The notes below the pieces were generated by a model, which worked only from the letters and a program-made list of their open reading frames with translations, searched no databases and was not told the DNA's origin. Made by a program: the position numbers and the translations under genes. DNA of 24,000 bases from Bryobacteraceae bacterium (GTDB lineage Bacteria; Acidobacteriota; Terriglobia; Bryobacterales; Bryobacteraceae), in NCBI GenBank assembly GCA_046160045.1, contig JBJXGR010000413.1:8959-32958 (forward strand), written 5' to 3'. Below, in pieces: positions 7,693 through 23,497 of this stretch. Positions within the stretch are counted from its first letter, which is position 1; each line of letters begins with the position of its first letter.

Positions 7693-8580
7693 CTAGACGC
7701 CGGTCTTCGTGAGGAACTCGCGGACGCCCGGAGCAAGCGTGGAGGCCACTTGCAGGTTGGCCATACCCTTCATGTCGGAAATGACGTACGCGAGGAAACT
7801 GCCCGCGTCAAATGCTGCGACCTGGTAGCGATCGGCGCCCGACTGGTAGATAGGAATGCCGGAGGGGCCGGCGGCCGGGGAGAGCTGGTCGAACGTCTCG
7901 CCGTCTTGTTTGCGGGCGATCACCAGCGACAGCAGCTTGTCGCCGTTTGCCAGCGTCAGATGCACGTATTGGCGTTTGGCGAAGGCGCACTGATGCGCCA
8001 GGACGATCCGGTAGCCTTCCGGAACCGCGGTTCGCACCACCGGCAGCAACCCCTGGTACGACGGTCCGAGCTCGCGTTCCATCTTCTCCACGCTGGGCGG
8101 GTTCTTCGAGTATTTGCGAAACACGGCGCAGTGGATATGGTCGCGCAGTCCTACTCGCAGGACGGCAGCAAACCGCGCCGAGACCTTCTCGATGTAGGTA
8201 TTCTGAGCCGGGCGATTGGCGAGTTCCGGCATCGGCTCGGGCCTGCCGCTGACCCACACCGCGGCAAAGAGGGCGAGGCTCGCGGCGGCGGCCAGGGACC
8301 ATCGCGCCCAGATCGCGCCGAACGGCTTGCGCGACTCTGCAGCCCCGATTCGGCGGCGAATGAGCACGGGAAGCTCAACGGGCGCCGGCTGGTTCCGCAC
8401 GACGGCTTTCAGGCGCGCGCGAAGCTGGACTCGCGCGTCGGCCTCGGCCGCGCATCCGGCGCAGCTCTCGAGGTGACGCAGCACCTCGTGGTTCGTCTCG
8501 ATGGTGAGCTCGTTGCTGATGTAGGAGTCGAGATACTTGCGGGTCCGCTCGCAGATCTCTCCAAATGAAACCCGATTCAT
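7693..8580 (-). CDS. Anti-sigma factor, zf-HC2 type, single TM, about 170-aa extracytoplasmic domain of unknown family
   Basis: N-terminal H-x3-C-x2-C motif (HLESCAGC). One hydrophobic span (WSLAAAASLALFAAVWV). The start overlaps the sigma gene stop (ATGA at 8577-8580). Paralogous to 22676-23497. Confidence 0.85.
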   Translation of the reverse strand: MNRVSFGEICERTRKYLDSYISNELTIETNHEVLRHLESCAGCAAEADARVQLRARLKAVVRNQPAPVELPVLIRRRIGAAESRKPFGAIWARWSLAAAASLALFAAVWVSGRPEPMPELANRPAQNTYIEKVSARFAAVLRVGLRDHIHCAVFRKYSKNPPSVEKMERELGPSYQGLLPVVRTAVPEGYRIVLAHQCAFAKRQYVHLTLANGDKLLSLVIARKQDGETFDQLSPAAGPSGIPIYQSGADRYQVAAFDAGSFLAYVISDMKGMANLQVASTLAPGVREFLTKTGV

Positions 8581-9134
8581 GCGCTCTTTCCTTCCCCTTT
8601 TGCCCGGCCGATTCCATATGATTGCGCGACGCCGGCCAACCGCTCACGGAGCTGCCTGCGGCCCCGGCTTAGCCTGGACATGATAGTCCCGATCGGCACG
8701 CTCAGAATTCCAGCCGCTTCCTTGTATGAAAACTCTTCGACATCGATGAGAAGCACGACGGCCCGGTAGTCATGTGTAACGTCGGCCAATGCCGCCAACA
8801 TCTCTTCATCGGTAATGTTCTCCGGGATCGACAGGCCTGGCGACACGGCCTGGTCGAGAATCACTTCGGGCTCGTTGATCATCCGGACGTTCCGCCATTT
8901 CCGGCGGTAGTGATGGAGCGTGTGGAACAGGATCGTAAAGAGCCACGCGCGGCAGTTGGTCCCCGGCTCGAATCGCCCGAAGGACTTCCAAGCCTGCAGG
9001 TAGACTTCCTGGACCACGTCGTCCGCTCCCACTCCCGTGCCCAGAAGGCGTGCCGCCGTGCGGTAGATGTCGTTCAAAAACGGCAGGGCGGCGGCTTCGA
9101 ACTCATCCGTTCGCGGCCGGTGCGAGAAGAGCAT
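8577..9134 (-). CDS. ECF (sigma-70 family, group IV) RNA polymerase sigma factor, copy 1
   Basis: Region 2 (VVQEVYLQAWKSFGRFEPGTNCRAWLFTILFH) and region 4 (EEFSYKEAAGILSVPIGTIMSRLSRGRRQLRERL) signatures. Translationally coupled to the anti-sigma gene. Confidence 0.9.
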   Translation of the reverse strand: MLFSHRPRTDEFEAAALPFLNDIYRTAARLLGTGVGADDVVQEVYLQAWKSFGRFEPGTNCRAWLFTILFHTLHHYRRKWRNVRMINEPEVILDQAVSPGLSIPENITDEEMLAALADVTHDYRAVVLLIDVEEFSYKEAAGILSVPIGTIMSRLSRGRRQLRERLAGVAQSYGIGRAKGEGKSA

Positions 9135-9142
9135 CCTACCCC

Positions 9143-9172
9143 CTTCATCCAGCTATTCAGCCAGTTTATTCC
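9143..9172 (-). promoter_or_regulatory. Type-1 bipartite promoter-like motif upstream of sigma copy 1
   Basis: The minus strand reads GGAATAAA-ctggctgaatagct-GGATGAAG, then 8 nt, then ATG (9134). Confidence 0.55.
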
Positions 9173-9354: not shown

Positions 9355-9359
9355 GTCCT

Positions 9360-9389: not shown

Positions 9390-9401
9390 CGGAACGCCGC
9401 G

Positions 9402-9431
9402 GGAATAACCACCGGGCTGCCCCGGATGAAG
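9402..9431 (+). promoter_or_regulatory. Type-1 bipartite motif upstream of the SDR-led operon
   Basis: The plus strand reads GGAATAAC-caccgggctgcccc-GGATGAAG, then 18 nt containing the SD AAGGAG, then ATG (9450). Confidence 0.55.
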
Positions 9432-9449
9432 CAGGTGCAAGGAGCAACG

Positions 9450-10253: not shown

Positions 10254-10263
10254 GGGGAACATC

Positions 10264-10941: not shown

Positions 10942-10942
10942 C

Positions 10943-11137
10943 ATGACGGTCGCGCTGTGGCTGGCTGGCATTTACGCAGGGATTGGCCTTGTGTTCGCAG
11001 TGGTGTTCGTCGCGGTCGGGATCGGCCGGGTCGATCCCAACGCGCGGAAGGCGCCGCTCGGGTTCCGCCTGATCGTTCTGCCCGGCTGTGCGGCGCTCTG
11101 GCCGCTGATGGCGGGGCGATGGATGAGGGCGCGATGA
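10943..11137 (+). CDS. Small membrane protein (64 aa, two hydrophobic spans)
   Basis: It starts 1 nt after the SDR stop. Translation MTVALWLAGIYAGIGLVFAVVFVAVGIG...LIVLPGCAALWPLMAG. No recognised family. Confidence 0.55.
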   Translation: MTVALWLAGIYAGIGLVFAVVFVAVGIGRVDPNARKAPLGFRLIVLPGCAALWPLMAGRWMRAR

Positions 11138-11277
11138 CGCGACCCCTGCGGCGCGCTCACTTCCGGATCTGGATCGTATTGGCCTTGCTGCTATACGCCA
11201 TATTGACGGCAGGCATCCTGGCCCGGCGAAGCACGATGCCGGTGAATCCGAACCTGAATTGGGAGCAGTATCGATGA
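11134..11277 (+). CDS. Small membrane protein (47 aa, one hydrophobic span)
   Basis: ATGA overlaps at both ends (11134-11137 and 11274-11277). Translation MTRPLRRAHFRIWIVLALLLYAILTAGILARR... Confidence 0.45.
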   Translation: MTRPLRRAHFRIWIVLALLLYAILTAGILARRSTMPVNPNLNWEQYR

Positions 11278-12299
11278 GCCTCGGCTACCAGGCGGTCGGT
11301 TGGAACCGCACGAAGAAAATCTACGACAGCCTCATCGTGAGCGGACTGGCGGTGTACCTCGCGCTGTTCGTGGGCATCGGAGCAGCCGTTCATCCGCACG
11401 CGACGGCGGAGACGCTGCTGATCCGCGGACTGGGCACTGCGGCGCTTCTGCTGCTGCACGTGATTCTCGCGATCGGTCCGCTGTGCCGCCTCGACCGGCG
11501 CTTCCTGCCGATGTTGTACAACCGCCGGCACCTGGGCGTCACGATGTTCCTTCTTGCCCTCGCGCATGGGGTCTTCTCGATCTTCCAGTTCCATGCGCTG
11601 GGCGACGTGAACCCGCTGGTCAGTGTGTTCGTCAGCAACACCCGGTACGGCAGCCTTGCCGATTTTCCGTTCCAGGCGCTCGGATTCTTTGCGCTTACGA
11701 TCCTGTTCCTGATGGCAGCCACCAGCCACGACTTCTGGCTGGCCAACCTGACCGCCCCGGCGTGGAAGCGACTTCACATGCTGGTGTACGTCGCCTATGG
11801 CCTTTTGATCGCGCACGTGGTGCTGGGCGCGCTCCAGTCGGAAACGAGCCGGGCGCTCCCGGTAATCCTCGGCCTGGGCATTACCGTCCTGGCCACGCTA
11901 CATCTGGCGGCGGCGGCGAAGGAGCGCCGGAAGGACAGCACCGGTCCGGGATACATGCCTGCCTGCGATCTCGACCGCATCCCCGAGAATCGCGCCTGCG
12001 TGGTTTCGTGCGGCGGCGAGCGGGTCGCGGTGTTCAAGTATGGCGGCAAGGTGTCAGCAGTTTCGAACGTCTGCCGGCATCAGAACGGCCCACTGGGCGA
12101 AGGCAAGATTATCGACGGCTGTATCACCTGTCCCTGGCACGGCTATCAGTACCTGCCTGATACGGGGGCCTCGCCGCCGCCATTCACGGAGAAGGTCTCG
12201 ACCTACCGCACGAAGATCGTGGGCCGGCAGGTGTTGGTCGATCCGATGCCGCTCCCGCCGGGAACGCGCGTCACCCCATCGGAGATCCCACATGTCTGA
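11274..12299 (+). CDS. Ferric-reductase-like transmembrane domain fused to a C-terminal Rieske [2Fe-2S] domain
   Basis: Multi-TM N-terminus with two H-x12-H pairs (HLGVTMFLLALAH, HMLVYVAYGLLIAH), typical of di-heme FRD/MsrQ-like domains. The C-terminus carries CRH...CPWH (the Rieske CxH-x17-CxxH). Confidence 0.85.
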   Translation: MSLGYQAVGWNRTKKIYDSLIVSGLAVYLALFVGIGAAVHPHATAETLLIRGLGTAALLLLHVILAIGPLCRLDRRFLPMLYNRRHLGVTMFLLALAHGVFSIFQFHALGDVNPLVSVFVSNTRYGSLADFPFQALGFFALTILFLMAATSHDFWLANLTAPAWKRLHMLVYVAYGLLIAHVVLGALQSETSRALPVILGLGITVLATLHLAAAAKERRKDSTGPGYMPACDLDRIPENRACVVSCGGERVAVFKYGGKVSAVSNVCRHQNGPLGEGKIIDGCITCPWHGYQYLPDTGASPPPFTEKVSTYRTKIVGRQVLVDPMPLPPGTRVTPSEIPHV

Positions 12300-12960
12300 G
12301 TTCTACATTGGCTACTCGCCCATTCCGGCGGGCCTGCGAACGTTCGTACGGCGCGTTGTCGCGGTCCTCGGAGTGATTGCCGCCGGAGCGGCGATCGCGC
12401 TCGTCCTGGAGCAGGACCCTTTTGCTCCGAGCGTGTTCGAGTTTCACGAATATCGCGAGTTCGAGGGCGTGCTGATTACGAAACCGTATCCCGCGCTCGT
12501 TGCCGCGGACGGGCTTCCGTGGCTGCTCGCCGGACCGGGCAAGCACGGATTCGCACCGCCCTCCGAACTCCGGGGCCAGGTCGTGCGATTGCGCGGGGAG
12601 CGAATCTACCGCGGACCGGACCGCATGATCGCGGTTCAAGGGGTGACCGCCGTGAGGCCGAGCGAACCCCCGCCGGAGGTCGACCTCGGTCCGGTGGAGC
12701 TCACCGGCGAGATCGTGGACAGCAAGTGCTACTTCGGCGTGATGAACCCCGGCAATGGTAAAGTCCATCGCGACTGTGCGGTCCGGTGTCTGAGCGGCGG
12801 CATTCCGCCCGCGCTGATTGTGCGCGACGCAGCCGGCGCGGGGCGAACGGTGCTGCTGGCGAATTGGCGGCGCGAGCTGCTGGACCGGGTGGCCGAGCCG
12901 GTGACCATTCGCGGCCGCCTGGCCCGATCCGCCGGCCGATTGATTCTCTACGCGGAATAA
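12292..12960 (+). CDS. N-terminally anchored protein of unknown function with a C-x14-HRDC-x3-C motif
   Basis: 8-nt overlap with the upstream gene. One TM (VVAVLGVIAAGAAIALVL). Contains DSKCYFGVMNPGNGKVHRDCAVRCLSGGIPP. Confidence 0.7.
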   Translation: MSEFYIGYSPIPAGLRTFVRRVVAVLGVIAAGAAIALVLEQDPFAPSVFEFHEYREFEGVLITKPYPALVAADGLPWLLAGPGKHGFAPPSELRGQVVRLRGERIYRGPDRMIAVQGVTAVRPSEPPPEVDLGPVELTGEIVDSKCYFGVMNPGNGKVHRDCAVRCLSGGIPPALIVRDAAGAGRTVLLANWRRELLDRVAEPVTIRGRLARSAGRLILYAE

Positions 12961-12983
12961 ATGCGACGCGCCCGCGGATTTCG
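12954..12983 (+). promoter_or_regulatory. Type-1 bipartite motif upstream of the OlsF-like gene
   Basis: The plus strand reads GGAATAAA-tgcgacgcgcccgc-GGATTTCG, then 6 nt, then ATG (12990). The -35-like box overlaps the TAA stop (12958-12960) of the upstream gene. Confidence 0.55.
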
Positions 12984-12989
12984 AGAGTG

Positions 12990-14762
12990 ATGGCTACCGC
13001 GGTTTTTGACTCCGTCATTCCCCGGATCGTCCCCTTCCCGCTGCCGCGCGCGATCCGCGATCTTCTCTCCCGCGCTCTCGGTTTCGACGAACTTGCGCGC
13101 GTGTACGACGCGCTGCAGTCGGCGGGAGACCGGCCGATCACCGACCGCCTGCTGGGAGTCCTTTCCGTCCGCTGCGCGGTCTCGGATGCCGATATCGAGC
13201 GCATCCCACGTGCAGGCGCGGCGATCGTCACGGCGAACCACCCGTTTGGCATCCTCGAGGGCGCGGCGCTCGCGGCCCTGCTCGGCCGGGTGCGGTCCGA
13301 TGTTCGCATCCTCGCGAACGGAATCCTGACCGCCATTCCGGAGTTGCGCGACCTCGTGATCCCGGTGGATCCGATGTCCGGGCCACAAGCCGCAGGCGGC
13401 AACGGCCACGGTCTGCGGCGCGCGCTCGAGCATCTCGGCGCAGGCGGCATGCTGGTCATTTTTCCGGCCGGCGAGGTCTCGCACTTCTGCTGGCGGGAGC
13501 GCGGTGTGAGCGACCCGGGCTGGAACCCGGCCGTCGCCCGGCTGGTGAACATCGCGGCGAGGCGAGGCGTTCGTGTACCGGTGCTGCCGGCTTTTGTCGA
13601 TGGCGCCAACGGAGCTCTGTTTCAGGCCGCCGGCATGGTGCATCCGCGACTGCGTACGGCGCTGCTCGGCCGCGAGTTGCTCAACAAACGCGGGCGGCGC
13701 GTGGAGGTGCGGATCGGGACGCCGGTCGAGTCCGACAGGCTTCTCGCGATTCCAAGCCCACGCGAACAGGTCGACTATCTCCGCTGGCGCACGTACCTGC
13801 TGGCGCGCCGCGAGCGCTTCAAGCCGTTAACGTCGCGGCCATTGGACCGCCCGGACGATGCTCAACGCGAGGCTGTTGCAGGGCCGATCCCACCAGAGGC
13901 ACTCGCCCGCGAGATTGGCGGGTTGCCCGCCGACCACCTCCTGAACCGCTCCGGCGATCTGGAGGTCTATCTCGCGAACGCCGCCGCGATTCCGCAGACG
14001 CTGCTCGAACTCGGCCGGCTGCGTGAGATCACGTTCCGCGCCGCTGGCGAAGGAACCGGCAAGCGGCTCGACCTGGACCGCTTCGACGAGCACTACCTTC
14101 ACCTATTCGTCTGGAACGCGCGCCGGCAGGAAGTCGTCGGCGCCTACCGCCTGGTGGGCACGGACACCGCCGGCACGCGGGGACTCTACACCGCGACGCT
14201 CTTTCGTTACCGCCCGGAGTTTCTGGACCGTCTCGGGCCGGCGGTCGAACTGGGCCGCTCGTTCATTCGCGCCGAGTACCAGAAAGGGTTCGCGCCGCTG
14301 CTCCTGTTGTGGAAGGGAATCGGCGCGTTCCTCGTGCGCAACCCGCGGTACACGGTCCTGTTCGGACCGGTCAGCATCAGCAACCAGTACGCCGCCGTCT
14401 CGCGAGAGCTGATGGTCGGGTTCCTCGAGAAGTATGCGATGCTGCGCGGCTGGGCCGGCTTGGTGCGCGGCCGCAATCCGTTCCGCCGCCGGCTACCGGA
14501 CGACGGCTTGCCGAGCGCGGGCTTCGACGTCGAAGACCTCTCCACGATTCTCGGTGATGTGGAGCAGAACGTTGCGGGCGTTCCGGTCCTGTTGCGGCAA
14601 TACCTGCGGCTCGGCGGCAAGCTGCTTGGCTTTAATGTCGACGCCAAGTTTGCGAACGCGCTCGACGGGCTGATCCTCGTCGACCTCACTAAGACGGAGC
14701 CGAAGCTGATCGAGCGGTATCTCGGCAAGGAGTATTTGAAAGGACAACATGGAACACACTAG
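12990..14762 (+). CDS. olsF: Bifunctional aminolipid synthase, OlsF-like: PlsC-type O-acyltransferase (N-terminal) plus OlsB/GlsB-like GNAT N-acyltransferase (C-terminal)
   Basis: The N-terminal half has the acyltransferase motifs NHPFGILEG (HX4-acidic) and VIFPAGEVS. The C-terminal half has LGRLREITFRAAGEGTGKRLDLDRFDEHYLHLFVWN..VVGAYRL, typical of the OlsB-type N-acyltransferase family. The 590-aa length fits OlsF. The amino-acid head group cannot be read from the sequence. Confidence 0.8.
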   Translation: MATAVFDSVIPRIVPFPLPRAIRDLLSRALGFDELARVYDALQSAGDRPITDRLLGVLSVRCAVSDADIERIPRAGAAIVTANHPFGILEGAALAALLGRVRSDVRILANGILTAIPELRDLVIPVDPMSGPQAAGGNGHGLRRALEHLGAGGMLVIFPAGEVSHFCWRERGVSDPGWNPAVARLVNIAARRGVRVPVLPAFVDGANGALFQAAGMVHPRLRTALLGRELLNKRGRRVEVRIGTPVESDRLLAIPSPREQVDYLRWRTYLLARRERFKPLTSRPLDRPDDAQREAVAGPIPPEALAREIGGLPADHLLNRSGDLEVYLANAAAIPQTLLELGRLREITFRAAGEGTGKRLDLDRFDEHYLHLFVWNARRQEVVGAYRLVGTDTAGTRGLYTATLFRYRPEFLDRLGPAVELGRSFIRAEYQKGFAPLLLLWKGIGAFLVRNPRYTVLFGPVSISNQYAAVSRELMVGFLEKYAMLRGWAGLVRGRNPFRRRLPDDGLPSAGFDVEDLSTILGDVEQNVAGVPVLLRQYLRLGGKLLGFNVDAKFANALDGLILVDLTKTEPKLIERYLGKEYLKGQHGTH

Positions 14763-15159
14763 AGCATTTGTTTGGACGAGCTGGGGGCTGCGGCTGATCG
14801 TCGCGGTCATTCTGCTGCAAACCCTTTTCTTCAAGTTCACCGGGGCCCGGGAATCGGTCTACATCTTCTCGACGCTCGGGATGGAACCATGGGGGCGAAT
14901 TGGATCGGGCGTCTTCGAGTTGATCGCGTCCGCGTTACTGCTGATCCCGTCGACCGTGCCGTTCGGCGCCGCGATGGCGCTGGCCGCCACAGGCAGCGCG
15001 ATTGTCTTCCATCTGACCAGGCTCGGAGTCGCGCTGGCAGCCGTCGGCGACCGCGGCGAGCTATTCGCCCTCGCCGTGCTGGTCGTTTTGTGCTCGGCAG
15101 CCCTGCTCTTGATGTACCGCCGGGAACTGCCGTTCGTCGCTTCCCACAAACTCACCTGA
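14749..15159 (+). CDS. DoxX-family membrane protein
   Basis: 14-nt overlap with the upstream gene. Four hydrophobic spans and a DoxX-like N-terminus (WGLRLIVAVILLQTLFFKFTG...). Confidence 0.75.
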   Translation: MEHTRAFVWTSWGLRLIVAVILLQTLFFKFTGARESVYIFSTLGMEPWGRIGSGVFELIASALLLIPSTVPFGAAMALAATGSAIVFHLTRLGVALAAVGDRGELFALAVLVVLCSAALLLMYRRELPFVASHKLT

Positions 15160-15166
15160 TGGCTAT

Positions 15167-15200
15167 GGCGATCGGCGGGCTCTGGAACTCGCCGATCGCC
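15167..15200. terminator. 11-bp perfect GC-rich hairpin between convergent operons
   Basis: GGCGATCGGCG (15167-15177) pairs with CGCCGATCGCC (15190-15200) around a 12-nt loop, 8 nt after the DoxX stop. No U-tract, so terminator function is uncertain. Confidence 0.4.
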
Positions 15201-15363
15201 AACACAGCCGGCACTCGATCCCCGACCACCGTCCCTGCCGGAATCGGCGCGTTGATCTGCGTCACCCAACCGTTCCCGGAGCTGGACCAATGAACGGCGA
15301 CCGGGTCGAACGGGAAGGCGACGGGTATGCCCGGCATCGTCGGTTGCGAGCCCCTCCCATTAG

Positions 15364-16923
15364 TTAGCCCGTCGCGACATCGGCTGTCCGCCGGCAAGGA
15401 GGATCTGCCGGTCGGCTCGGTCGTAGACGATGATCATGCCTGTTTATGCGACCGGGCCGTTGTGTTCTTCCCGGGGCGCGGACGACCTGCACGAACTGGC
15501 GGAGCGTCATGGGCCGCGCGCCGGCAGCACGGTTCGCGCTGCCGATCTCGAAGGCGATGCGCCAAAGGCGGAACATTACGCGGTAGGCTTCGAGCAGGCT
15601 GACGGCAGGGTCGTAGATATGGGTCGCCTCGGCCGATACGCCATTCAGCTCGAGCACCTGGAAGATGCCGGCCTGGAAGTCGGCGATCGACGGCGTGCGC
15701 AGGTCGAAGCGGCCGAAGTAGAAGCCCGGGTGCGACTGCGCGACCGCGTCGATGGCGGCCTCGAGCTCGGGCGTGCAATAGGACGAGCCGTCCAGAAAGA
15801 TGGCGCCCCGGCAGTGCGAGCCGAGCTCGACAAGACGCACACGTTCGCCGGGGAAGAGGATGCGGTCTGGCTGCCTGGCGAGGTAGATGTGCGCCAGGCA
15901 AACGGCACGATCATCTCGAAGGACCAGGTCGGACAGCTTGCTCACGCCGTCGCCAACCACCTCGGGAAAGCGCTTCTCGGTGATGGAGCAGATGCGACCG
16001 GACCGCTCGCCGGGATAACGGTAGTAGAAGACCCCGAATTCAAGGCCTCCCACATAGCGCTGCACGATCGTGGCGATGCGGGCGGCGGCGAGGTATGCGT
16101 TGACCTCCTCCCGCGAGCGTGCGATGACCACGCCTGTCCCGCGCTCACCGACGTCGGGCTTGAGCACGACCGGGAACTCGGAGACTTCGAGCGTCTCGCC
16201 AGCCCGGACGAGCTGGAAATCGGGAACACGCGGCAAGTGGGAGAGGATCGAGGACTTCGATTCGCCGACAAACCCGCCCGACGGAATGCCGGGGTTCGCC
16301 GCCGTGAACAGCGTCAACGATCGATGCCTCCAACCGAGATATAGGAGGTACGGAACAATTGGCAGATAGGCGAGCCATGGCGGCCAGAACTCCCAGCGCG
16401 CCCTGCGGCGAAACCAACCGATAATTCGTTGGCGAGTCTGCCACCGCAGCCGGGCGATCTGCCAGCCGGCCACTGCGACGGCGACCGCGAGAGGCGCCCC
16501 CGGGATGCCGCGGCCAAGCACAGCCGCGCTGCCGACCAGGAGCGGTGTCCACACGAGGGCCGCGGCCAGGAAGTACAGATTGAACGTCCAAAAGCGCGTG
16601 TGCAGCATCCCGGCGGCGAGGTACGTGGGCAGTCGCAGACCGGGAGTAAACCGGCTGAGGAGCACGACCGCTGCGCCACGCTCAGCCATCCAGCGCGCTG
16701 CGCTAGCGATCTTACTCTCCGGCACGAGCCGGCGGATGATCGGCCGACCTGCGAGGCGGCCCGTGAAGTAGAGCAACAGGTCGCCGAAGTAGATCCCCGC
16801 AGCGCAGGCGAGAACACCCTCAACGAGGCCGAGGTGCCCGCCCGCGACAAGTGCGCCCGTGGCGATGCATGTCAGGTCTTCGCTCACGAAGGTCGCGAGC
16901 GCAATGGCGATGAGTTGTCCCAT
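15364..16923 (-). CDS. Fusion protein: DedA/VTT membrane domain (N-terminal) plus ATP-grasp ligase domain (C-terminal)
   Basis: The N-terminus is DedA-like (FVSEDLTCIATGALVAGG...YFGDLLLYFTGRLAGRP...LLSRFTPGLRLPTYLAAG). Extra TMs follow, then ATP-grasp-like segments (VVLKPDVGERGTGV, IVQRYVGGLEFGVFYYR, FGRFDLR, VLELNGVSAEATHIYDP). The last roughly 40 aa are low-complexity. Confidence 0.8.
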   Translation of the reverse strand: MGQLIAIALATFVSEDLTCIATGALVAGGHLGLVEGVLACAAGIYFGDLLLYFTGRLAGRPIIRRLVPESKIASAARWMAERGAAVVLLSRFTPGLRLPTYLAAGMLHTRFWTFNLYFLAAALVWTPLLVGSAAVLGRGIPGAPLAVAVAVAGWQIARLRWQTRQRIIGWFRRRARWEFWPPWLAYLPIVPYLLYLGWRHRSLTLFTAANPGIPSGGFVGESKSSILSHLPRVPDFQLVRAGETLEVSEFPVVLKPDVGERGTGVVIARSREEVNAYLAAARIATIVQRYVGGLEFGVFYYRYPGERSGRICSITEKRFPEVVGDGVSKLSDLVLRDDRAVCLAHIYLARQPDRILFPGERVRLVELGSHCRGAIFLDGSSYCTPELEAAIDAVAQSHPGFYFGRFDLRTPSIADFQAGIFQVLELNGVSAEATHIYDPAVSLLEAYRVMFRLWRIAFEIGSANRAAGARPMTLRQFVQVVRAPGRTQRPGRINRHDHRLRPSRPADPPCRRTADVATG

Positions 16924-16933
16924 GGGGTCTCCG

Positions 16934-17596
16934 TTACGCGGCTCGGGCGCAGGGTGCAGTGGGCAAGTAATGGAAGCGAATCTCGCCGTTCCGAACGATC
17001 ACCTCGCTGAAGCTCACTGTCTCGGCGTCGGACCGGTGCATGCAGGGCGCGTGCGCGCCCGACGATCCGGTGTGGCTCGCGTGAAACCTGTATAGCGACG
17101 CGGGGTCGACAGGTTTGAGTCGAGCGAACTCCAGTAGGCGCTCCCGGCGGACGCCGTCAGGGTCGTAGGACGAGGACGTCAGCGGCGCTCGCGCGTCGAG
17201 GTCGACGGCAAGTTGGGCGCCGTCCCATATTCCGACCGTTGCCGGCCCGCCCGGTTCGAGCATCAGAAGGACAAACGGAGCGAAGGGGCTCAGGTCCGAG
17301 TGTCGAAGCAGAAAGACGCAATCGTCGATCGAGCGGATCCAGATGAGTTCGGGGATAAGCAGACCACGGCTGCGCTGAGCAGGCCGTGAAGAGCCGTTCA
17401 AGAGGCACAGCGATATGCCGTGCTCGTTTACGGCGATCCACGTGCCGCCGAAGTCGGCATCGGTGGGGGCCAGGTATTTCACGCCGGCCCCCTCGAAGAC
17501 GCGTGGCGGGTGTGCGATCCCTCGCGTCCTCTTCTCATCGCGATTGCACAGAAGATGATAGCCGCCGGTTTGATGGAGCCAGCTCACCGTGCACAT
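16934..17596 (-). CDS. NRDE-family (TANGO2-like, Ntn-hydrolase-like) protein
   Basis: It starts with MCT (N-terminal Cys after Met) and carries the LCNRDE signature. An RBS GGAG lies in the 10-nt spacer before the downstream gene. Confidence 0.85.
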   Translation of the reverse strand: MCTVSWLHQTGGYHLLCNRDEKRTRGIAHPPRVFEGAGVKYLAPTDADFGGTWIAVNEHGISLCLLNGSSRPAQRSRGLLIPELIWIRSIDDCVFLLRHSDLSPFAPFVLLMLEPGGPATVGIWDGAQLAVDLDARAPLTSSSYDPDGVRRERLLEFARLKPVDPASLYRFHASHTGSSGAHAPCMHRSDAETVSFSEVIVRNGEIRFHYLPTAPCARAA

Positions 17597-18133
17597 TTAC
17601 GCAGCCTCCGCGGCGCTCGCCGCCAGATAACGCAGGGTGGAAGGCGCCATCCCAAAGTCGGGGTCAATGTCGACTCCGTGCAGTCGCAGCGTCATCGCAA
17701 TCAACGCGAAATGATGGATGGTATGGCTGCTGAGGACCTGCAGTTCACGACTGATCGATGACTCCATAAACGGCTCGTGAACCAGGCCCGCCGCCGCGTC
17801 CTCCATCCGAACCCAGACGACGGCTTCGAAACGGACAGCCGTGGACGTTTGCAACTCCCTGATGACGGCGCGAATACAATCCGCCGCGGCGCTACGGGAC
17901 CGCTCGATCTCGAGGTCGCGCCGGCGAGCGTCATAGTCGATATGAAGCGACTCAGCGCCGCACAAGAAGGCCTGATAGAACTCAATGACGTGACGAAGAT
18001 GACCGCCAGCGCGATGGGGCGCCATGCCGGGCGCCGTGGTCGAGTAGGCTGTGTCGTCGAGCTGTTCCAGCAGCCGGAGGGCTTGCCGTAGCCAGCGGAT
18101 GTTGGTGTCGATTAAGGTGTTCAGCCGTTCCAT
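17597..18133 (-). CDS. DinB-superfamily (four-helix-bundle, His-triad) protein
   Basis: Helical protein with candidate metal-ligand histidines (HLRHVIEF, SSHTIHHFALI). Its stop TAA abuts the NRDE ATG (TAAATG). Confidence 0.7.
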   Translation of the reverse strand: MERLNTLIDTNIRWLRQALRLLEQLDDTAYSTTAPGMAPHRAGGHLRHVIEFYQAFLCGAESLHIDYDARRRDLEIERSRSAAADCIRAVIRELQTSTAVRFEAVVWVRMEDAAAGLVHEPFMESSISRELQVLSSHTIHHFALIAMTLRLHGVDIDPDFGMAPSTLRYLAASAAEAA

Positions 18134-18140
18134 ACTGCTG

Positions 18141-18170
18141 GAACATCCCTCCCGGCGGCCGATTTATTCC
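18141..18170 (-). promoter_or_regulatory. Type-1 bipartite motif upstream of the DinB-NRDE-DedA::ATP-grasp operon
   Basis: The minus strand reads GGAATAAA-tcggccgccgggag-GGATGTTC, then 7 nt, then ATG (18133). Confidence 0.55.
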
Positions 18171-18172
18171 AT

Positions 18173-18202
18173 GGAATATTTCCGCGGCGACGCGTCCTCT
18201 AA
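18173..18202 (+). promoter_or_regulatory. Type-2 bipartite motif upstream of the aquaporin operon
   Basis: The plus strand reads GGAATATT-tccgcggcgacgcg-TCCTCTAA, then 5 nt, then GTG (18208). Confidence 0.4.
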
Positions 18203-18207
18203 GCGGC

Positions 18208-19002
18208 GTGCAGGCAACTGGCGTCGCAATCGCAAAACCCCATGCAGCGGCCGAAGCGCTCCGCGGCCACTGGCCGGAGTACCTGATGGAGGCCGCCGCG
18301 CTCGGAGCCTTCATGGTCTCGGCGTGCGCCTTCGGCATCCTTTTGCAGCGTGCGCCCGTTGGCGACTTCACTCGACGGCTGGCCGGCGGAATCGCCATGG
18401 GGCTGACGGCTGTGGCAATCATCTGTTCGCCTTGGGGACAACGGTCCGGCGCCCATATGAACCCGGCGCTGACGCTCGCATTCGCCACAATTGGCAAGAT
18501 CGCGCCCTGGGACGCGGTCTTCTACATGGCGGCGCAGTTTCTGGGCGGGACCGCCGGAGTCGTCCTGGCGCGGCTGCTCTTCGGCCCGGCCGTCGCGAAC
18601 GTGAACTATGTCGCAACTCTGCCGGGTCCGCAAGGTCAGTGGACCGCATTCGCCGCGGAGTTCGCCATCTCCTTTCTGCTCGTCGCGACGGTCCTACGCG
18701 TGGCGAACTCGCGACGATGGACGCGTGCGACCCCTTGGGTTGCCGGGTTCCTGGTCGCGGCGTTCATCACAATTGAGTCGCCGCTCTCGGGAATGAGCAT
18801 GAATCCGGCGCGCACGTTCGCGTCCGCGCTGCCGGCGGGCGTGTGGACGAGCTTCTGGGTCTATCTGACCGCGCCTCCGCTGGCGATGGTCACCGCGGCG
18901 CAGCTGTACCGGCGGCGTGTCTTCTGCGTCAAGTATCACCACCACAATCGCCAGCGGTGTATTTTCCGCTGTAACTACGGAGCACTTCAGAATGAGCAAT
19001 GA
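18208..19002 (+). CDS. MIP-family channel (aquaporin/glycerol-facilitator-like) with a Cys/His-rich C-terminal tail
   Basis: Two NPA boxes (HMNPALT, SMNPART) and six hydrophobic spans. The tail reads VFCVKYHHHNRQRCIFRCNYG. The start is uncertain: GTG at 18208, or ATG at 18286, which has a GGAG 6 nt upstream. Confidence 0.85.
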   Translation: MQATGVAIAKPHAAAEALRGHWPEYLMEAAALGAFMVSACAFGILLQRAPVGDFTRRLAGGIAMGLTAVAIICSPWGQRSGAHMNPALTLAFATIGKIAPWDAVFYMAAQFLGGTAGVVLARLLFGPAVANVNYVATLPGPQGQWTAFAAEFAISFLLVATVLRVANSRRWTRATPWVAGFLVAAFITIESPLSGMSMNPARTFASALPAGVWTSFWVYLTAPPLAMVTAAQLYRRRVFCVKYHHHNRQRCIFRCNYGALQNEQ

Positions 19003-20563
19003 CCGGCACTACGACGTGATCATCATCGGCACCGGGGCGGGCGGCGGCACACTCGCGCGCAAGCTCGCCCCTACAGGCAAGCGCGTGCTTCTTCTCGAGC
19101 GCGGCGACTACGTCCCGCGCGAGAAGGACAACTGGAGCACGCGCGCCGTCAACGTGGAAGGCAAGTACCAGACCCGGGAGGTCTGGCGCGACCGCGACGG
19201 CAAGCCGCTGCACCCGCACACGAATTACTGCGTCGGCGGTAACACTAAGTTCTACGGCGCGGCGCTGTTTCGACTGCGAGGGCGGGACTTCTGCGCCGTC
19301 CGCCATCACGGCGGCATCTCACCCGCCTGGCCTATCTCGTACGACGAACTGGAGCCTTACTACACAGAGGCCGAACGCCACTATCACGTGCACGGCGAGC
19401 GCGGCGAGGACCCGACCGATCCGGCGGCGAGCGCGCCGTACCCGCACCCCGCAGTCAGCCATGAGCCGCGCATCCAGCAATTGGCGGACGACTTCGCCGC
19501 CGCAGGCCTTCGGCCCTTCCACACGCCCCTGGGAGTGCAACTGGATGAGCGAAACCCGCGGGCCAGCAAGTGCATCCGGTGCAATACTTGCGACGGTTTT
19601 CCGTGCTTGGTGTATGCCAAGTCGGACGCCCAGGTGCTCGGGGTGGATCCGGCGCTCGAATACCTGAACGTCGGCCTCATGACGAACGCGTACGTGGAGC
19701 GCCTTGAGACCAGCGAGTCGGGCCGCGAGATCACGGGTGTCATCGTGCGGCAGAACGAAGCTATCGCTACATACACCGCGGACATCGTGGTGGTCGCGTG
19801 CGGCGCGATCAACTCGGCGGCGCTATTGCTGCGGTCGGCGAACGACCGGCATCCGCGCGGTCTGGCCAATGGATCGGATACGGTCGGGCGGCACTATATG
19901 GGGCACGTCAATTCGGTCCTGATGGCAATTTCGAAGTGCCCCAACCCGGTGATCTTCCAGAAGACGCTTTCGATAAACGACTTCTATTTCGGCACGGACG
20001 AGTGGGAGTACCCGATGGGGCACATCTCGTTCGTCGGCAAGCTGGACGGGGTTACGCTGAGCGCTGGCGCGCCGGCCATCGCACCGGGGTTCACTCTCGA
20101 CATGATGGCGAATCATTCGCTCGATTTCTGGCTCACGTCGGAGGACCTGCCCGACCCCGACAATCGCGTGACGCTCGACCGCGAGGGTAACATCGTCCTG
20201 AACTACCGGCCCAACAACGAAGAAGGGCACACGCGCCTCGCGGCGAAGTTGAAAGCGCTGATGCAGCGGCAAACGCGATGCTCGGTGCACGGGCACGATT
20301 GCCATCAGGGACTGTTTGCGCGCAGTCTGTTCGTCGGGCAGCGGATTCCGCTGGCGGGCGTCGCGCATCAGAACGGCACCATCCGCTTCGGCGCCAATCC
20401 GACGGCATCGGCGCTCGACCGCAACTGTAAGGCGCACGAGGTGGACAACCTGTACGTGGTGGACGGGAGCTTCTTCCCGTCGAGCGGCGCGGTCAATCCT
20501 GCATTGACGATCATGGCGAACGCGCTACGGGTTGGTGATCACCTCATCGGGAGGATGTCATGA
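18992..20563 (+). CDS. GMC-family FAD-dependent oxidoreductase
   Basis: The ATG at 18992 overlaps the aquaporin stop by 11 nt. FAD fold motif YDVIIIGTGAGGGTLA. C-terminal GMC signature (NLYVVDGSFFPSSGAVNPALTIMA). An internal Cys cluster reads KCIRCNTCDGFPC. Confidence 0.9.
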   Translation: MSNDRHYDVIIIGTGAGGGTLARKLAPTGKRVLLLERGDYVPREKDNWSTRAVNVEGKYQTREVWRDRDGKPLHPHTNYCVGGNTKFYGAALFRLRGRDFCAVRHHGGISPAWPISYDELEPYYTEAERHYHVHGERGEDPTDPAASAPYPHPAVSHEPRIQQLADDFAAAGLRPFHTPLGVQLDERNPRASKCIRCNTCDGFPCLVYAKSDAQVLGVDPALEYLNVGLMTNAYVERLETSESGREITGVIVRQNEAIATYTADIVVVACGAINSAALLLRSANDRHPRGLANGSDTVGRHYMGHVNSVLMAISKCPNPVIFQKTLSINDFYFGTDEWEYPMGHISFVGKLDGVTLSAGAPAIAPGFTLDMMANHSLDFWLTSEDLPDPDNRVTLDREGNIVLNYRPNNEEGHTRLAAKLKALMQRQTRCSVHGHDCHQGLFARSLFVGQRIPLAGVAHQNGTIRFGANPTASALDRNCKAHEVDNLYVVDGSFFPSSGAVNPALTIMANALRVGDHLIGRMS

Positions 20564-21534
20564 CGCGGCGACTATTCGTCCTTCTACTTGCCGCCAGCAC
20601 GCTGCTGTTCGGCGGCGACCGTCCTGGGATCGTCAGCGCAGTGGACTCGATCGGACTCACCGTCTCGGACCTCGACCGCTCGGTGGAGTTCTACTCCAAG
20701 GTCCTTCACTTCGAGAAGGTCACCGAAATCGAGGTGGAAGGCGACGCCTACGAGCACCTGCAAGGCGTTTTCGGGCTGCGGATGCGAATCGCCCGCATGA
20801 AGCTCGAAGACGAATCGATCGAGCTGACGGAGTATCTCGCGCCACGGGGCCGCCCTGCCCCGGTGGACGCGCGGAGCAACGATCGCTGGTTCCAGCACAT
20901 CGCCATCATCGTCAGCGACATGGATCGCGCCTACCGGTGGCTGCGCGAGCACAAGGTGGAGCACGCGTCATCGGGTCCACAACTTCTGCCTGCCTGGAAT
21001 CCGAATGCCGGCGGCATCCGCGCGTTCTACTTCCGCGACCCGGACGGGCATCCGCTGGAGGTCCTGTGGTTCCCGTCCGGCAAGGGCAAGGCGAAGTGGC
21101 ACAAAACCGATCGCCTGTTTCTCGGAATAGATCACACCGCGATCGTCATATCCGACACAGAGGCCAGCTTGCGGTTCTATCGCGACCGCCTGGGCATGGA
21201 AGTGGCCGGCGAGAGCGAGAACTACGGGCCCGAGCAGGAGCGCCTCAACAACGTCTTCGGCGCCCGCCTGCGCATCACAGCGCTGCGGGCGGCGTCGGGG
21301 CCGGGAGTGGAGTTCCTCGAATACCTGGCCCCGCGCGACGGGCGTCCCTATCCGCCGGACGCGCGGGCGAACGACCTGATTCACTGGCAGACCCGGTTCG
21401 TCGGGAACAGCGCCGGGGACGCCGCGAAGGTACTGCGGAATCGAGCCGTCGAACTGGACGGCAAGGCGGGGTTTCGGAAAGCAGTTACGGTCCGCGACCC
21501 GGATGGACACGCCATCCAGATCGTGGAGCCATAG
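20560..21534 (+). CDS. Secreted tandem VOC (glyoxalase/bleomycin-resistance/dioxygenase) family protein
   Basis: ATGA overlap with the GMC gene. N-terminal signal-like MTRRLFVLLLAASTLLFGG. Two VOC-like repeats each end in RDPDGH..E (FYFRDPDGHPLEV, VTVRDPDGHAIQIV). Confidence 0.85.
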   Translation: MTRRLFVLLLAASTLLFGGDRPGIVSAVDSIGLTVSDLDRSVEFYSKVLHFEKVTEIEVEGDAYEHLQGVFGLRMRIARMKLEDESIELTEYLAPRGRPAPVDARSNDRWFQHIAIIVSDMDRAYRWLREHKVEHASSGPQLLPAWNPNAGGIRAFYFRDPDGHPLEVLWFPSGKGKAKWHKTDRLFLGIDHTAIVISDTEASLRFYRDRLGMEVAGESENYGPEQERLNNVFGARLRITALRAASGPGVEFLEYLAPRDGRPYPPDARANDLIHWQTRFVGNSAGDAAKVLRNRAVELDGKAGFRKAVTVRDPDGHAIQIVEP

Positions 21535-22036: not shown

Positions 22037-22066
22037 GGAATAAATAGAGCTCGCGAAATCCTTATT
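22037..22066 (+). promoter_or_regulatory. Type-2 bipartite motif upstream of sigma copy 2
   Basis: The plus strand reads GGAATAAA-tagagctcgcgaaa-TCCTTATT, then 7 nt, then ATG (22074). Confidence 0.4.
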
Positions 22067-22073
22067 CAGGCGT

Positions 22074-22679
22074 ATGGCAGCTTCACAGGTAATGACGAGT
22101 TGCGAAGGCGAGTCGAGGCTTCCGTTCACTGGCGCCGTGAGCGTCGAGCGCCGGTTCGAGGAAGAAGCGATGCCGCACCTGAACGATCTCTTCCGGACGG
22201 CGCTGCGCGTGACCGGCGACCGCGGCGCCGCCGAAGACGCGATCCAGGAAGTCTACCTTCAGGCCTGGCGCTCTTTCGACCGCTTCGAGGCCGGCACGAA
22301 TTGCCGCGCCTGGCTCTACAAGATCCTCTTTCACTGTGTCAGCCATCAGCGCCGCAAATGGTTCCGCTTCCCTCTTCTCATGGAGACCGACGAGTTCCTG
22401 GAGACCAACCTCGTGCAAACGAAGCAAGTCCCGCAGCATGTGACCGACGAGGAAATACTGACGGCGCTTGACGGAATCCCGCAGGAGTTCCGCTCGGTGG
22501 TCCTGCTGGTCGACGTGGAGGAGTTCGCGTACAAGGAAGCGGCCGGCATCCTGTCGATCCCGATCGGCACGGTGATGTCGCGCCTGAGCCGCGGCCGGGC
22601 ACTGCTGCGCAAACGGCTGGAGGGGGCGGCGCGCTCCTACGGGATCTTGAAGAACGCTCCACAGGGTGAGAGCTTATGA
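22074..22679 (+). CDS. ECF RNA polymerase sigma factor, copy 2 (paralog of 8577-9134)
   Basis: It aligns along its length with copy 1 (AIQEVYLQAWRSFDRFEAGTNCRAWLYKILFH; EEFAYKEAAGILSIPIGTVMSRLSRGRALLRKRL). The start at 22074 is chosen from motif geometry. Later in-frame starts are possible. Confidence 0.85.
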   Translation: MAASQVMTSCEGESRLPFTGAVSVERRFEEEAMPHLNDLFRTALRVTGDRGAAEDAIQEVYLQAWRSFDRFEAGTNCRAWLYKILFHCVSHQRRKWFRFPLLMETDEFLETNLVQTKQVPQHVTDEEILTALDGIPQEFRSVVLLVDVEEFAYKEAAGILSIPIGTVMSRLSRGRALLRKRLEGAARSYGILKNAPQGESL

Positions 22680-23497
22680 CGCACACGACGTTTGATGAGG
22701 GGACCTGCCGCAGCATGCAGGCGAAACTGGATTCTTACATCGACAACGAACTGCTCGTCGAGACCAATCTCGAGATGACGCAGCACTTCGAACGCTGCGC
22801 CGTCTGCGCGCGGGAAGCCTCAATCCGTCGCGAGCTGCGCAGTAGAGTAAGAGCCGCCGCCAAACAGACGCCGTTGCCAGCAGGCCTCGACATTCTAGTG
22901 CGGCAGCGGTTGCGCCATTCCGCGCAGCCGACTCGATGGTGGCTGATGGCCATCGCGGCCGTGATCGTCGTGAGCATCGGATCCTGGCTCGGGTACGAGC
23001 GGCTCCGATTGCCGCCGGCGGGTCTGGTCGCGCTTCTTGGGATCGGCCAAGGCAACCACGTGCACTGCGCGGTCGGCCGTCAAAACAAGACGCGGCCGGT
23101 CGGAATCGACAAGCTGTCGCCCGAATACAAACCTATCCTTGCGATCGCCCGTCAGACAGTTCCTGTAGACATGCCACTCGCCGTTGCGCACGAGTGCCGC
23201 TACAAGGGGCGTCCGTTCATCCATGTCACGTTTCGCAATGACCAGCGCCTGCTGTCGGTGATCGTCGTCCGGAAGCAGGAGGGCGAATCGCTGCTCTCGG
23301 CCGGCGCGCGTCCCGCGATGTCGCGGGCGGGCATCGACCTGTACTCAGCCGGTATCGATCAATACCAGGGCGCCGCGTTCGAAAGCGGCGGGTTCCTCGT
23401 GTATACCATGTCCGATCTTTCCCGCCGCGAGAATCTGCGCATCCTGGCGGCGCTCGCGCCGGCCTTCCGCAACGCCCTTCAACAGATCGCGTCGTAG
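22676..23497 (+). CDS. Anti-sigma factor, zf-HC2 type, copy 2 (paralog of 7693-8580)
   Basis: ATGA overlap with the sigma gene. Carries HFERCAVC, one TM (WWLMAIAAVIVVSIGSWLG), and a C-terminal domain colinear with copy 1. Confidence 0.85.
   Translation: MTHTTFDEGTCRSMQAKLDSYIDNELLVETNLEMTQHFERCAVCAREASIRRELRSRVRAAAKQTPLPAGLDILVRQRLRHSAQPTRWWLMAIAAVIVVSIGSWLGYERLRLPPAGLVALLGIGQGNHVHCAVGRQNKTRPVGIDKLSPEYKPILAIARQTVPVDMPLAVAHECRYKGRPFIHVTFRNDQRLLSVIVVRKQEGESLLSAGARPAMSRAGIDLYSAGIDQYQGAAFESGGFLVYTMSDLSRRENLRILAALAPAFRNALQQIAS

Follow-up and report, generated by a model that had tools for sequence, protein, structure and literature searches.

An ATP-grasp ligase fused to a DedA membrane domain in a conserved operon associated with aminolipid acyltransferase genes: a candidate head-group modification module

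Aminolipids are widespread phosphorus-free membrane lipids, among which the ornithine lipids are made by the OlsBA or OlsF pathways. Known modifiers of ornithine lipids are the OlsC, OlsD and OlsE hydroxylases, the OlsG methyltransferase and the taurine transferase that makes cerilipin, none of which is known to be an ATP-grasp, DedA, NRDE or DinB protein. Some of their peptide- and taurine-bearing head groups were described decades ago, whereas the gene for the ligase is still missing. Ser-Gly and Orn-Ser-Gly occur as head groups of aminolipids, flavolipin synthesis passes through glycine lipid, and the transfer of taurine to the ornithine-lipid carboxyl is ATP-dependent, its biochemistry dating back to the 1970s and its gene being unknown (PMC12971839). 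For another class of lipids, MprF combines a lipid-translocating domain with a cytoplasmic enzyme that adds an amino acid to the lipid head group in a context of stress and antimicrobial peptides. Here we describe a minus-strand operon from a Bryobacteraceae bacterium which encodes a DinB-like protein, an NRDE/TANGO2-like protein and a DedA(VTT)::ATP-grasp fusion protein, and which converges on genes for an OlsF-like synthase and a DoxX-like protein. It lies in a stretch of 24,000 nt (contig JBJXGR010000413.1, positions 8,959–32,958; hereafter the window, to whose positions all coordinates refer unless another locus is named). The module is reminiscent of MprF in its general layout, yet the two are not homologous: MprF draws on aminoacyl-tRNA, has a synthase domain of the DUF2156/GNAT-like kind and acts on phosphatidylglycerol, whereas the module has an ATP-grasp ligase on a DedA domain and its lipid is inferred to be an aminolipid. 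We tentatively propose, at a likelihood somewhat short of even, that the module carries out stress-induced, membrane-tethered amide ligation and hydrolysis on the head group of an ornithine-lipid-type aminolipid.

The open reading frames (ORFs) and junctions of the three genes are found exactly where the original prediction, made from the sequence of the window, had placed them (Table 1). The dinB-like gene runs into the NRDE gene through TAAATG (gcgTAAATGtgc), and the NRDE gene is separated from the fusion gene by a 10-nt spacer containing GGAG, in the arrangement TAA-cggagacccc-ATG (TAAcggagaccccATG). The predicted tail-to-tail arrangement is also observed, as both genes of the plus-strand olsF-like/doxX-like pair converge on the operon. 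The fusion of a DedA domain to an ATP-grasp ligase in the last gene is borne out as well. The VTT/DedA domain scores 63.2 bits against the Pfam cutoff of 33.9; the RimK-type ATP-grasp Pfam score of 20.7 bits is just under the cutoff of 21, and Foldseek confirmed the ATP-grasp fold, as it matched the AlphaFold2 (AF2) model of the fusion protein (predicted local distance difference test, pLDDT, 82.7) to CphA1, CphA2, Ddl and GshAB with a probability of 1.0. Profile searches for the nearest characterised ligases led to the same families, the family profile of the fusion protein matching cyanophycin synthetase 2, cyanophycin synthetase 1 (CphA1), GshAB and Ddl. Furthermore, the ATP-grasp domain is intact rather than degenerate. 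In an alignment of 20 sequences with 55–73% identity, K255 (in VLKPDxGERGxGV), G259-E-R-G262, E295, R405-x-D407 and E425-x-N427 are invariant, so that the Lys, R-x-D and E-x-N residues are kept, and the catalytic residues align to the equivalent motifs of 7ta5. Thus, the ligase shares the fold and catalytic residues of the CphA G domain, Ddl, GshAB and RimK, and the same chemistry would be expected, namely, formation of an acyl-phosphate followed by attack of an amino group. It differs from all of them in that its identity is 14–24%, in that its scores fall below the Pfam and NCBIfam cutoffs of every named family, and in its N-terminal region. Stand-alone ligase profiles start aligning at their position ~120–130, with fusion residues 230–292 corresponding to profile positions 128–194. 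Judged by this alignment, the DedA domain and a conserved linker (TAANPGIPSGGFVGESKS) largely take the place of the classical soluble N-terminal pre-ATP-grasp substrate domain. This replacement by a membrane domain is a hint that the carboxylate substrate may be presented from the membrane. CphA/Ddl/GshAB-type ligases phosphorylate a terminal carboxylate and then add an amino acid. Since the nearest relatives extend terminal carboxylates, a free head-group carboxylate is predicted to be the most plausible substrate.

In the DedA domain, E15, D16, D48, R91 and R97 are invariant among the same 20 sequences, and the two arginines lie within SRFTPGLRLP. The conserved arginine pair of DedA proteins is functionally essential in YqjA/UptA. 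UptA is the best NCBIfam match of the DedA domain, the ATP-grasp domain resembles Ddl, and its relatives in Vibrionaceae are annotated as 'D-alanine--D-alanine ligase', all of which would suit a fusion protein acting on a polyprenyl-phosphate-linked or peptidoglycan precursor, with Ddl- or D-Asp-ligase-like addition to lipid II and the DedA domain as a UptA-like flippase. However, the UptA score of 50.1 bits is far under the cutoff of 250, so the domain is not a UptA equivalog; moreover, no cell-wall genes were found in any of the loci described below, where the recurrent partners are aminolipid acyltransferases. We consider such a cell-wall role very unlikely.

The fusion protein has 5015 homologues, the best 120 of which are full-length fusions with at least 56% identity. 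To examine the genomic context, relatives were fetched with the fusion protein alone, its peptides being scanned against a single genome of each species. This gave 135 confirmed relatives, and the best 80 loci were kept. By title they comprise 53 Acidobacteriota, 17 Planctomycetota and 10 others, although the labels of metagenome-assembled genomes may be unreliable. Neighbours were scored by iterated profile searches on six-frame ORFs of the 80 loci. NRDE is located immediately upstream of the fusion gene and on the same strand in 55 of the 70 loci with enough upstream sequence, and DinB is upstream of it in 59 of these 70; the families therefore do co-occur elsewhere, in line with the original prediction. 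A GNAT N-acyltransferase of the OlsB/OlsF type is present in 35 of the 52 loci that extend 4 kb or more to either side. DoxX was found in 31/80 loci, and also in Vibrio and Photobacterium. A ferric-reductase-type membrane domain fused to a Rieske domain (FRD-Rieske) and a membrane-anchored protein, DUFx, occur in 32/80 loci and form one operon with the GNAT gene in several loci outside Bryobacterales. In 23/80 loci the DedA domain is preceded by a fused alpha/beta-hydrolase (ABH) that has a complete GxSxG/Asp/His triad and its own membrane helix at the N-terminus. Consistent with two fusion types, without and with ABH, a search with the ATP-grasp domain alone gave 1034 clusters at 50% identity (E<=1e-30) with lengths of ~500–600 or ~800–900 aa. 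The recurrence of the gene combination in dozens of species-level genomes fetched by the fusion protein only is far beyond chance.

Bryobacterales loci are arranged as in the window. Elsewhere the genes are co-directional, in the order FRD-Rieske, DUFx, GNAT, acyltransferase (AT), DinB, NRDE, (ABH::)DedA::Grasp or, in a second type, AT, DinB, NRDE, ABH::DedA::Grasp, GNAT; operons of GNAT, AT, DinB, NRDE and (ABH::)DedA::Grasp are found in Planctomycetota and other phyla. The split GNAT and AT genes are closest to OlsB (105 bits against a cutoff of 320) and OlsA (145 against 300), in both cases below the equivalog cutoffs. The link to aminolipid synthesis is thus stronger than originally predicted from the neighbouring olsF, since OlsB-like and OlsA-like genes are part of one co-directional operon in other phyla. 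Overall, OlsB/OlsA-type or OlsF-type genes stand beside the module, often in the same operon, in Acidobacteriota, Planctomycetota, Vibrionaceae and Variovorax. There are also minimal loci consisting of GNAT, AT and (ABH::)DedA::Grasp that have neither DinB nor NRDE. Because these loci keep the acyltransferases together with DedA::Grasp, the ligase is most constantly accompanied by aminolipid synthase, with DinB and NRDE as frequent accessories. In one further locus (L081, 7494–8539 of contig_174916), the genes for GMC oxidoreductase and glyoxalase beside dinB seem to be truncated or split and olsF is absent from the vicinity, a sign that accessory genes may have decayed in some lineages.

Cultured Proteobacteria with the module were found by tblastn against plasmid and chromid records. 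Vibrio aquimaris has seven tightly packed co-directional genes, encoding DedA, ATP-grasp, DinB, NRDE, a periplasmic YHS-domain protein, a DoxX-like and an OlsF-like protein, and Photobacterium sp. GJ3 has the same order without YHS. The YHS-domain (metal-binding) protein of V. aquimaris (L086, 11354–11791) carries a signal peptide and is encoded between NRDE and DoxX. In Salinivibrio proteolyticus the genes are VTT, 'D-alanine--D-alanine ligase', a hypothetical protein that is a DinB homologue, and NRDE, the last of which matches the NRDE family of the window with an hhalign probability of 99.9%. Paracoccus denitrificans encodes ATP-grasp, alpha/beta-hydrolase and VTT proteins as separate adjacent genes, which by gene arrangement makes it a 'Rosetta stone' for the ABH::DedA::Grasp fusion.

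A counterpart may be found in Vibrio cholerae. Low salinity induces VCA0646, an OlsF-type enzyme with demonstrated ornithine-lipid synthase function, and reduced susceptibility to polymyxin B depends on it; the gene closes a putative VCA0649-0646 operon and also has a promoter of its own (PMC12186959). Peptides translated from published V. cholerae primers match the N-terminus of V. aquimaris OlsF, and a further primer-derived peptide matches the C-terminus of the V. aquimaris YHS protein, pointing to a YHS-domain gene immediately before VCA0646. Judging by synteny in other Vibrionaceae, VCA0651-0646 appears to be the same module. In a PNAS study vca0646-0649 were described as 'four genes of unknown function' activated by HapR, and an RNA-seq table lists VCA0650-1 as 'D-alanine-D-alanine ligase, hypothetical protein' (PMC7600106). 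In the iurV mutant VCA0646-7, VCA0648-9 and VCA0650-1 fall together, alongside msrB, thioredoxin 2, glutaredoxin, an extracytoplasmic function (ECF) sigma factor and ferric reductase (PMC7600106). The V. cholerae genes therefore resemble the module in an OlsF-type synthase that ends an operon of 'unknown function', in a VCA0650 annotated as D-Ala-D-Ala ligase and in the co-regulation of the units. They differ in that DedA and ATP-grasp are separate genes in Vibrionaceae and in that HapR and low salinity take the place of the ECF promoter of the window in their control. Furthermore, vca0647 was a transposon-sequencing hit for defence against the type VI secretion system, and overexpression of vca0646 and vca0647 leads to cell death (PNAS study). 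The latter phenotype could point to a module that makes or exports a soluble or secreted N-acyl peptide (a toxin, a surfactant or a lipo-amino-acid signal), with ATP-grasp building the peptide and DedA exporting it. OlsB-type GNATs also resemble FeeM N-acyl amino acid synthases, and stand-alone ATP-grasps in Variovorax and Komagataeibacter, which are found with a methyltransferase, an iron redox enzyme and GNAT, look natural-product-like. By contrast, the operons include an OlsA-type O-acyltransferase, the maker of the diacylated membrane form, the product of VCA0646 is ordinary ornithine lipid, and no efflux or secretion genes are found in the module, leaving a secreted peptide an unlikely product. 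The stand-alone ATP-grasps of Variovorax and Komagataeibacter (Table 1) stand in another conserved context, distinct from that of the module, alongside an S-adenosylmethionine-dependent methyltransferase and a Haem_oxygenas_2-type iron redox enzyme. The Acetobacteraceae relatives seen were only stand-alone plasmid ATP-grasp genes in another context.

The middle gene was predicted to encode an Ntn-type NRDE protein with an N-terminal Cys, and the conserved residues and the structural model agree with this. The Pfam TANGO2/NRDE domain (PF05742) scores 28 bits against a cutoff of 22.6, with a match that covers residues 1–85 only, whereas the V. aquimaris orthologue scores 44 bits over residues 1–210. 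Among homologues C2, T3, N18, R19, D20 and E21 are invariant, so that both Cys2 and the NRDE motif are retained. The AF2 model (pLDDT 85.5) has the alpha-beta-beta-alpha Ntn fold, and its best Foldseek matches are human TANGO2 (8sv7), bile-salt hydrolases, penicillin V acylase, acid ceramidase and NAAA. These last four are Cys-Ntn enzymes that cleave or transfer amides joining a lipophilic acyl group and an amine or amino acid. The protein of the window thus shares with TANGO2 and the Cys-Ntn amidases the N-terminal Cys, the NRDE motif and the fold, and it differs from them in being shorter and divergent. A defect of human TANGO2 causes metabolic disease. A crystallographic study of TANGO2 from 2026 arrived at the same Cys-Ntn view and proposed fatty-acid derivatives as substrates, no member of the family having a demonstrated one (PMC13044924). 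The only studied bacterial TANGO2 homologue, HtpA of Shewanella, has been given a different role, that of a haem chaperone (PMC10470608). By analogy, NRDE might be a haem-trafficking protein which serves the nearby di-haem ferric-reductase/Rieske protein, all the more since the FRD-Rieske gene co-occurs in the 32 loci mentioned above. However, the catalytic constellation of Cys2 and NRDE is invariant, NRDE is found in many loci without FRD-Rieske, including those of Vibrionaceae and Planctomycetota, and haem binding to TANGO2 is nonspecific according to the crystallographic study (PMC13044924). A haem-trafficking role is thus highly improbable.

The original prediction further held that the dinB operon shares a 'type-1 motif' with olsF. 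The motif is real, with GGAATAAAT located 27–28 nt upstream of both the dinB and the olsF start codons, but it is not specific to these two operons and corresponds to an ECF-sigma-type promoter. Its core, GGAATAAA(T), has five copies in the window against 0.17 expected. A bipartite element, GGAATAWW-N14-GGAT/TCCT, followed by a start codon 9–12 nt on, is present at five sites, namely, before dinB, olsF, mip and two ECF sigma genes. Four of the five exact GGAATAAA copies are within bipartite sites, and the mip site is a variant, GGAATATT. The remaining exact copy, at 2485, overlaps an AAGGAGG that resembles a ribosome-binding site and has no second promoter box. The promoter is also kept in orthologous loci. 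There, half of the exact GGAATAAA copies sit before DinB or OlsF, and the AT::GNAT gene is preceded by the same box in 10 loci. Moreover, among 44 promoter sites collected by the first box alone, the GGAT second box recurs at the fixed 14-nt spacing with frequencies of 0.73 (G), 0.75 (G), 0.86 (A) and 0.98 (T). The orthologue of the ECF sigma factor at 22074–22679 neighbours the module in 24–25 loci, and the box is present in 16/23. Since the bipartite promoter is common to dinB, olsF, mip and the two ECF sigma genes and is kept in orthologous loci, we infer that the dinB operon, olsF-doxX and mip-gmc-glyoxalase form one ECF regulon with very short or absent leaders. The presence of the same box before two paralogous sigma/anti-sigma pairs suggests autoregulation and possibly cross-regulation. 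Two other interpretations of these elements were rejected. The palindrome ATTCCATGGAAT was considered as a repressor operator and was resolved into the two back-to-back, head-to-head −35-like boxes of the divergent ECF-type promoters of dinB and mip. Similarly, the 'type-1 motif' is not a TAAATG stop-start, as olsF is read in another frame than the ATG that follows the stop of the upstream gene at 12961, and the shared element is the GGAATAAAT box. Scans of 10800–18400 for sigma-70 promoters and terminators gave nothing useful.

The DinB-like protein is the weakest of the three assignments. It scores 25.2 bits against the DinB_2 cutoff of 24.8, barely over, and most of its close homologues have no precomputed Pfam match. 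A search of its profile against PDB gave no meaningful match and thus no solved relative by sequence. The V. aquimaris orthologue, however, passes Pfam DinB (PF05163; 29 bits against 23), and the Salinivibrio orthologue matches the DinB family of the window with an hhalign probability of 99.5%. G43, R47, H48, H137, H140 and H141 are invariant and H45 is nearly so, with H48/H137/H141 (H-x3-H) as the candidate His triad, and a C-terminal FGxAPSTL motif is kept across phyla. The DinB superfamily includes thiol transferases. The combination of DinB, Ntn hydrolase and ligase had been likened to EgtA/EgtC/EgtB. EgtB consists of DinB and an FGE-sulfatase domain, EgtC is a class-II glutamine amidotransferase and EgtA is a glutamate-cysteine ligase. 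By contrast, the DinB protein of the window has 178 aa without a second domain and lacks the FGE-sulfatase domain, the Ntn protein is PF05742 and not a class-II glutamine amidotransferase, and the ligase is an ATP-grasp, which EgtA is not. Homology to EgtA/B/C is therefore ruled out by domain content, and the resemblance is an analogy only. The underlying logic can still be considered. The genes would then form a module against thiol/electrophile or redox stress, tied to aminolipid synthesis by shared regulation only; DinB would act as a thiol S-transferase, ATP-grasp would resemble glutathione synthetase and ligate a low-molecular-weight thiol or a conjugate, and NRDE would be an amidase acting on conjugates. 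Besides the thiol transferases of the superfamily, such a module would be in keeping with GshAB as one of the closest structures of the ATP-grasp domain, with GMC oxidoreductase, glyoxalase/VOC, DoxX and FRD-Rieske as regulon neighbours and with the co-regulation of the V. cholerae genes with msrB, thioredoxin 2, glutaredoxin and ferric reductase. Nevertheless, ATP-grasp is fused to or stands beside a DedA lipid-transporter domain in every lineage, the minimal loci drop DinB and NRDE and keep the aminolipid acyltransferases with DedA::Grasp, and EgtA, EgtB and EgtC have no homologue among the three proteins. On balance, a thiol function is improbable.

The remaining genes of the window are summarised in Table 1. 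The listed olsF ORF is over-extended, the true start being ATG 12990 and not GTG 12786. Numbered from the latter, Acyltransf_2 covers residues 131–340 and Acetyltransf_5 residues 412–509, which is the architecture of OlsF. With 388 bits on NCBIfam OlsF, the protein misses the equivalog cutoff for ornithine specificity, which is 620. The homologues of OlsF, OlsB and OlsA in the window and its relatives, all of them under equivalog cutoffs, therefore set the module apart from the ornithine-lipid pathways in which it is otherwise genomically embedded. DUFx has no match in Pfam, NCBIfam or PDB and no similarity to the Vibrio YHS protein by BLASTP. It always accompanies FRD-Rieske, and the pair may form a trans-membrane electron-transfer unit. 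FRD-Rieske is preceded on the plus strand by two SDR genes (9426–10253 and 10264–10941) and two small membrane ORFs (10943–11137 and 11134–11277); ATGA overlaps link the small ORFs to each other and to FRD-Rieske. Together with DUFx, olsF and doxX these genes make up a tightly packed array of eight. Conservation of the SDRs extends to 23 loci, and the Salinivibrio module, too, has an SDR in front of it. The synteny of mip-gmc-glyoxalase is kept in Bryobacterales, and in one locus (L049) these genes are co-directional with the module. Genes for a large GH63/MGH1-like glycoside hydrolase and a glycogen-debranching enzyme (2574–7207, plus strand) have no relation to the module. A 72-nt direct repeat with 93% identity is present at 2226–2297 and 7618–7689, the second copy just 3' of the minus-strand anti-sigma gene at 7693–8580; it matches nothing in Rfam, and its predicted fold is weak (best z-score −2.35). 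Rfam gave no match in the window as a whole.

Table 1. Features of the window and coordinates of selected related loci
Feature	Locus	Coordinates	Strand	Remarks
DinB-like gene	window	17597..18133	−	178 aa; first gene of the operon; Pfam DinB_2
NRDE/TANGO2-like Cys-Ntn protein	window	16934..17596	−	220 aa; Met-Cys start; contains LCNRDE; Pfam TANGO2
DedA(VTT)::ATP-grasp fusion	window	15364..16923	−	519 aa; Pfam and NCBIfam matches
DedA/VTT membrane domain of fusion	window	16453..16923	−	residues 1–157; VTT_dom
Linker and ATP-grasp ligase domain of fusion	window	15469..16326	−	residues 200–485
ECF-type promoter of dinB operon	window	18145..18170	−	GGAATAAA-N14-GGAT, 11 nt before ATG
Back-to-back ECF-type promoter for mip-gmc-glyoxalase	window	18173..18198	+	GGAATATT-N14-TCCT
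ECF-type promoter of olsF	window	12954..12979	+	overlaps stop codon of upstream gene
OlsF-like bifunctional aminolipid synthase	window	12990..14762	+	O-acyltransferase and GNAT N-acyltransferase; Pfam Acyltransf_2 and Acetyltransf_5
DoxX/MauE-like small membrane protein	window	14749..15159	+	overlaps olsF stop; Pfam DoxX 19.8 bits, under cutoff 23.6
Ferric-reductase-type (di-haem b) membrane domain fused to Rieske domain (FRD-Rieske)	window	11274..12299	+	Pfam Ferric_reduct and Rieske
DUFx	window	12292..12960	+	membrane-anchored; C-x15-C-x3-C pattern
mip (18208–19002), GMC oxidoreductase (~18992–20563), two-domain glyoxalase/VOC (20560–21534)	window	18208..21534	+	Pfam; divergent from dinB
ECF sigma (22074–22679) and zf-HC2 anti-sigma (22676–23497)	window	22037..23497	+	Pfam; own GGAATAAA promoter 22037–22062
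Second ECF sigma (8577–9134) and zf-HC2 anti-sigma (7693–8580)	window	7693..9172	−	Pfam; GGAATAAA promoter 9147–9172
ABH::DedA::ATP-grasp	L061	6741–9545		one of 23 loci with this fusion
ABH::DedA::ATP-grasp	L063	6705–9572		one of 23 loci with this fusion
Methyltransferase and iron redox enzyme, stand-alone ATP-grasp, then directly OlsB-like GNAT	L087 (Variovorax)	7092–10878		
Stand-alone ATP-grasp with the same methyltransferase and iron redox enzyme	L084 (Komagataeibacter)	5079–8011		without GNAT

Taken together, these data can be arranged into the following scheme for amide ligation and hydrolysis on an aminolipid head group. An ECF sigma factor, once freed from its zf-HC2 anti-sigma factor, would fire the near-leaderless GGAATAAA-N14-GGAT promoters of dinB-nrde-dedA::grasp, olsF-doxX and mip-gmc-voc. 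By homology, the OlsF-like enzyme, or OlsB and OlsA in other phyla, would make an acyloxyacyl amino-acid lipid. The DedA domain would hold and perhaps flip this lipid and, by analogy with the flippase domain of MprF, may translocate the product. ATP-grasp would activate a carboxylate, likely the free one of the head group, as an acyl-phosphate and couple an amine or amino acid to it, with the head group being extended as in the aminolipids with dipeptide or taurine-amidated head groups. The NRDE Cys-Ntn enzyme would then hydrolyse or transfer the lipid amide in editing, turnover or transacylation, and DinB would be a His-ligated metal accessory enzyme, DinB and NRDE being frequent yet dispensable. 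Where present, the N-terminal alpha/beta-hydrolase would add ester or amide cleavage. A more specific version, in which DedA::ATP-grasp is the missing ATP-dependent head-group ligase of aminolipids and exports its product across the membrane, and NRDE is a lipid-amide hydrolase or transacylase, is possible but doubtful.

Several observations speak against amide chemistry on an aminolipid. Seventeen of the 52 fully informative loci lack an aminolipid acyltransferase at a distance of up to 8 kb, and the same is true of the Azospirillum, Paracoccus and Salinivibrio loci. In V. cholerae, thin-layer chromatography with [14C]ornithine revealed label only in ornithine lipid and at the origin, with no extra species noted; the upstream promoter was weak under these conditions (PMC12186959). 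Furthermore, vca0648 and vca0649 are dispensable for the overexpression phenotype (PNAS study). The regulon neighbours (GMC oxidoreductase, VOC, MIP, DoxX and FRD-Rieske) hint at redox or electrophile stress over lipid building. The scheme leaves DinB without a defined task, and hydropathy, by which the hydrophobic segments of the fusion protein were mapped, did not decide which side the ABH domain faces. Finally, the sequence of an ATP-grasp enzyme does not reveal its substrate. Our literature searches yielded nothing that links ATP-grasp, DedA, TANGO2/NRDE or ECF sigma factors to aminolipids and, as originally predicted, no paper that assigns a function to this combination of genes.

The module would represent an aminolipid biosynthesis or modification cluster with an unprecedented set of enzymes. 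It is of high interest because it spans at least four phylum-level lineages, holds three enigmatic protein families and is directly testable in Vibrio, where the V. cholerae genes have already been tied to polymyxin resistance, defence against type VI secretion and quorum-sensing-controlled cell death. An ATP-grasp enzyme fused to a lipid-transporter domain within aminolipid operons is a concrete candidate for the head-group ligase. In addition, TANGO2-family Cys-Ntn, DedA and DoxX proteins, whose biochemistry is disputed or unknown, are brought into one genetic context. If the more specific version of the scheme is true, Acidobacteria, Planctomycetes and Vibrio would contain a lipid class that has not yet been described in them, and the TANGO2 family, whose human member has no agreed function, would gain its first physiological class of substrates.

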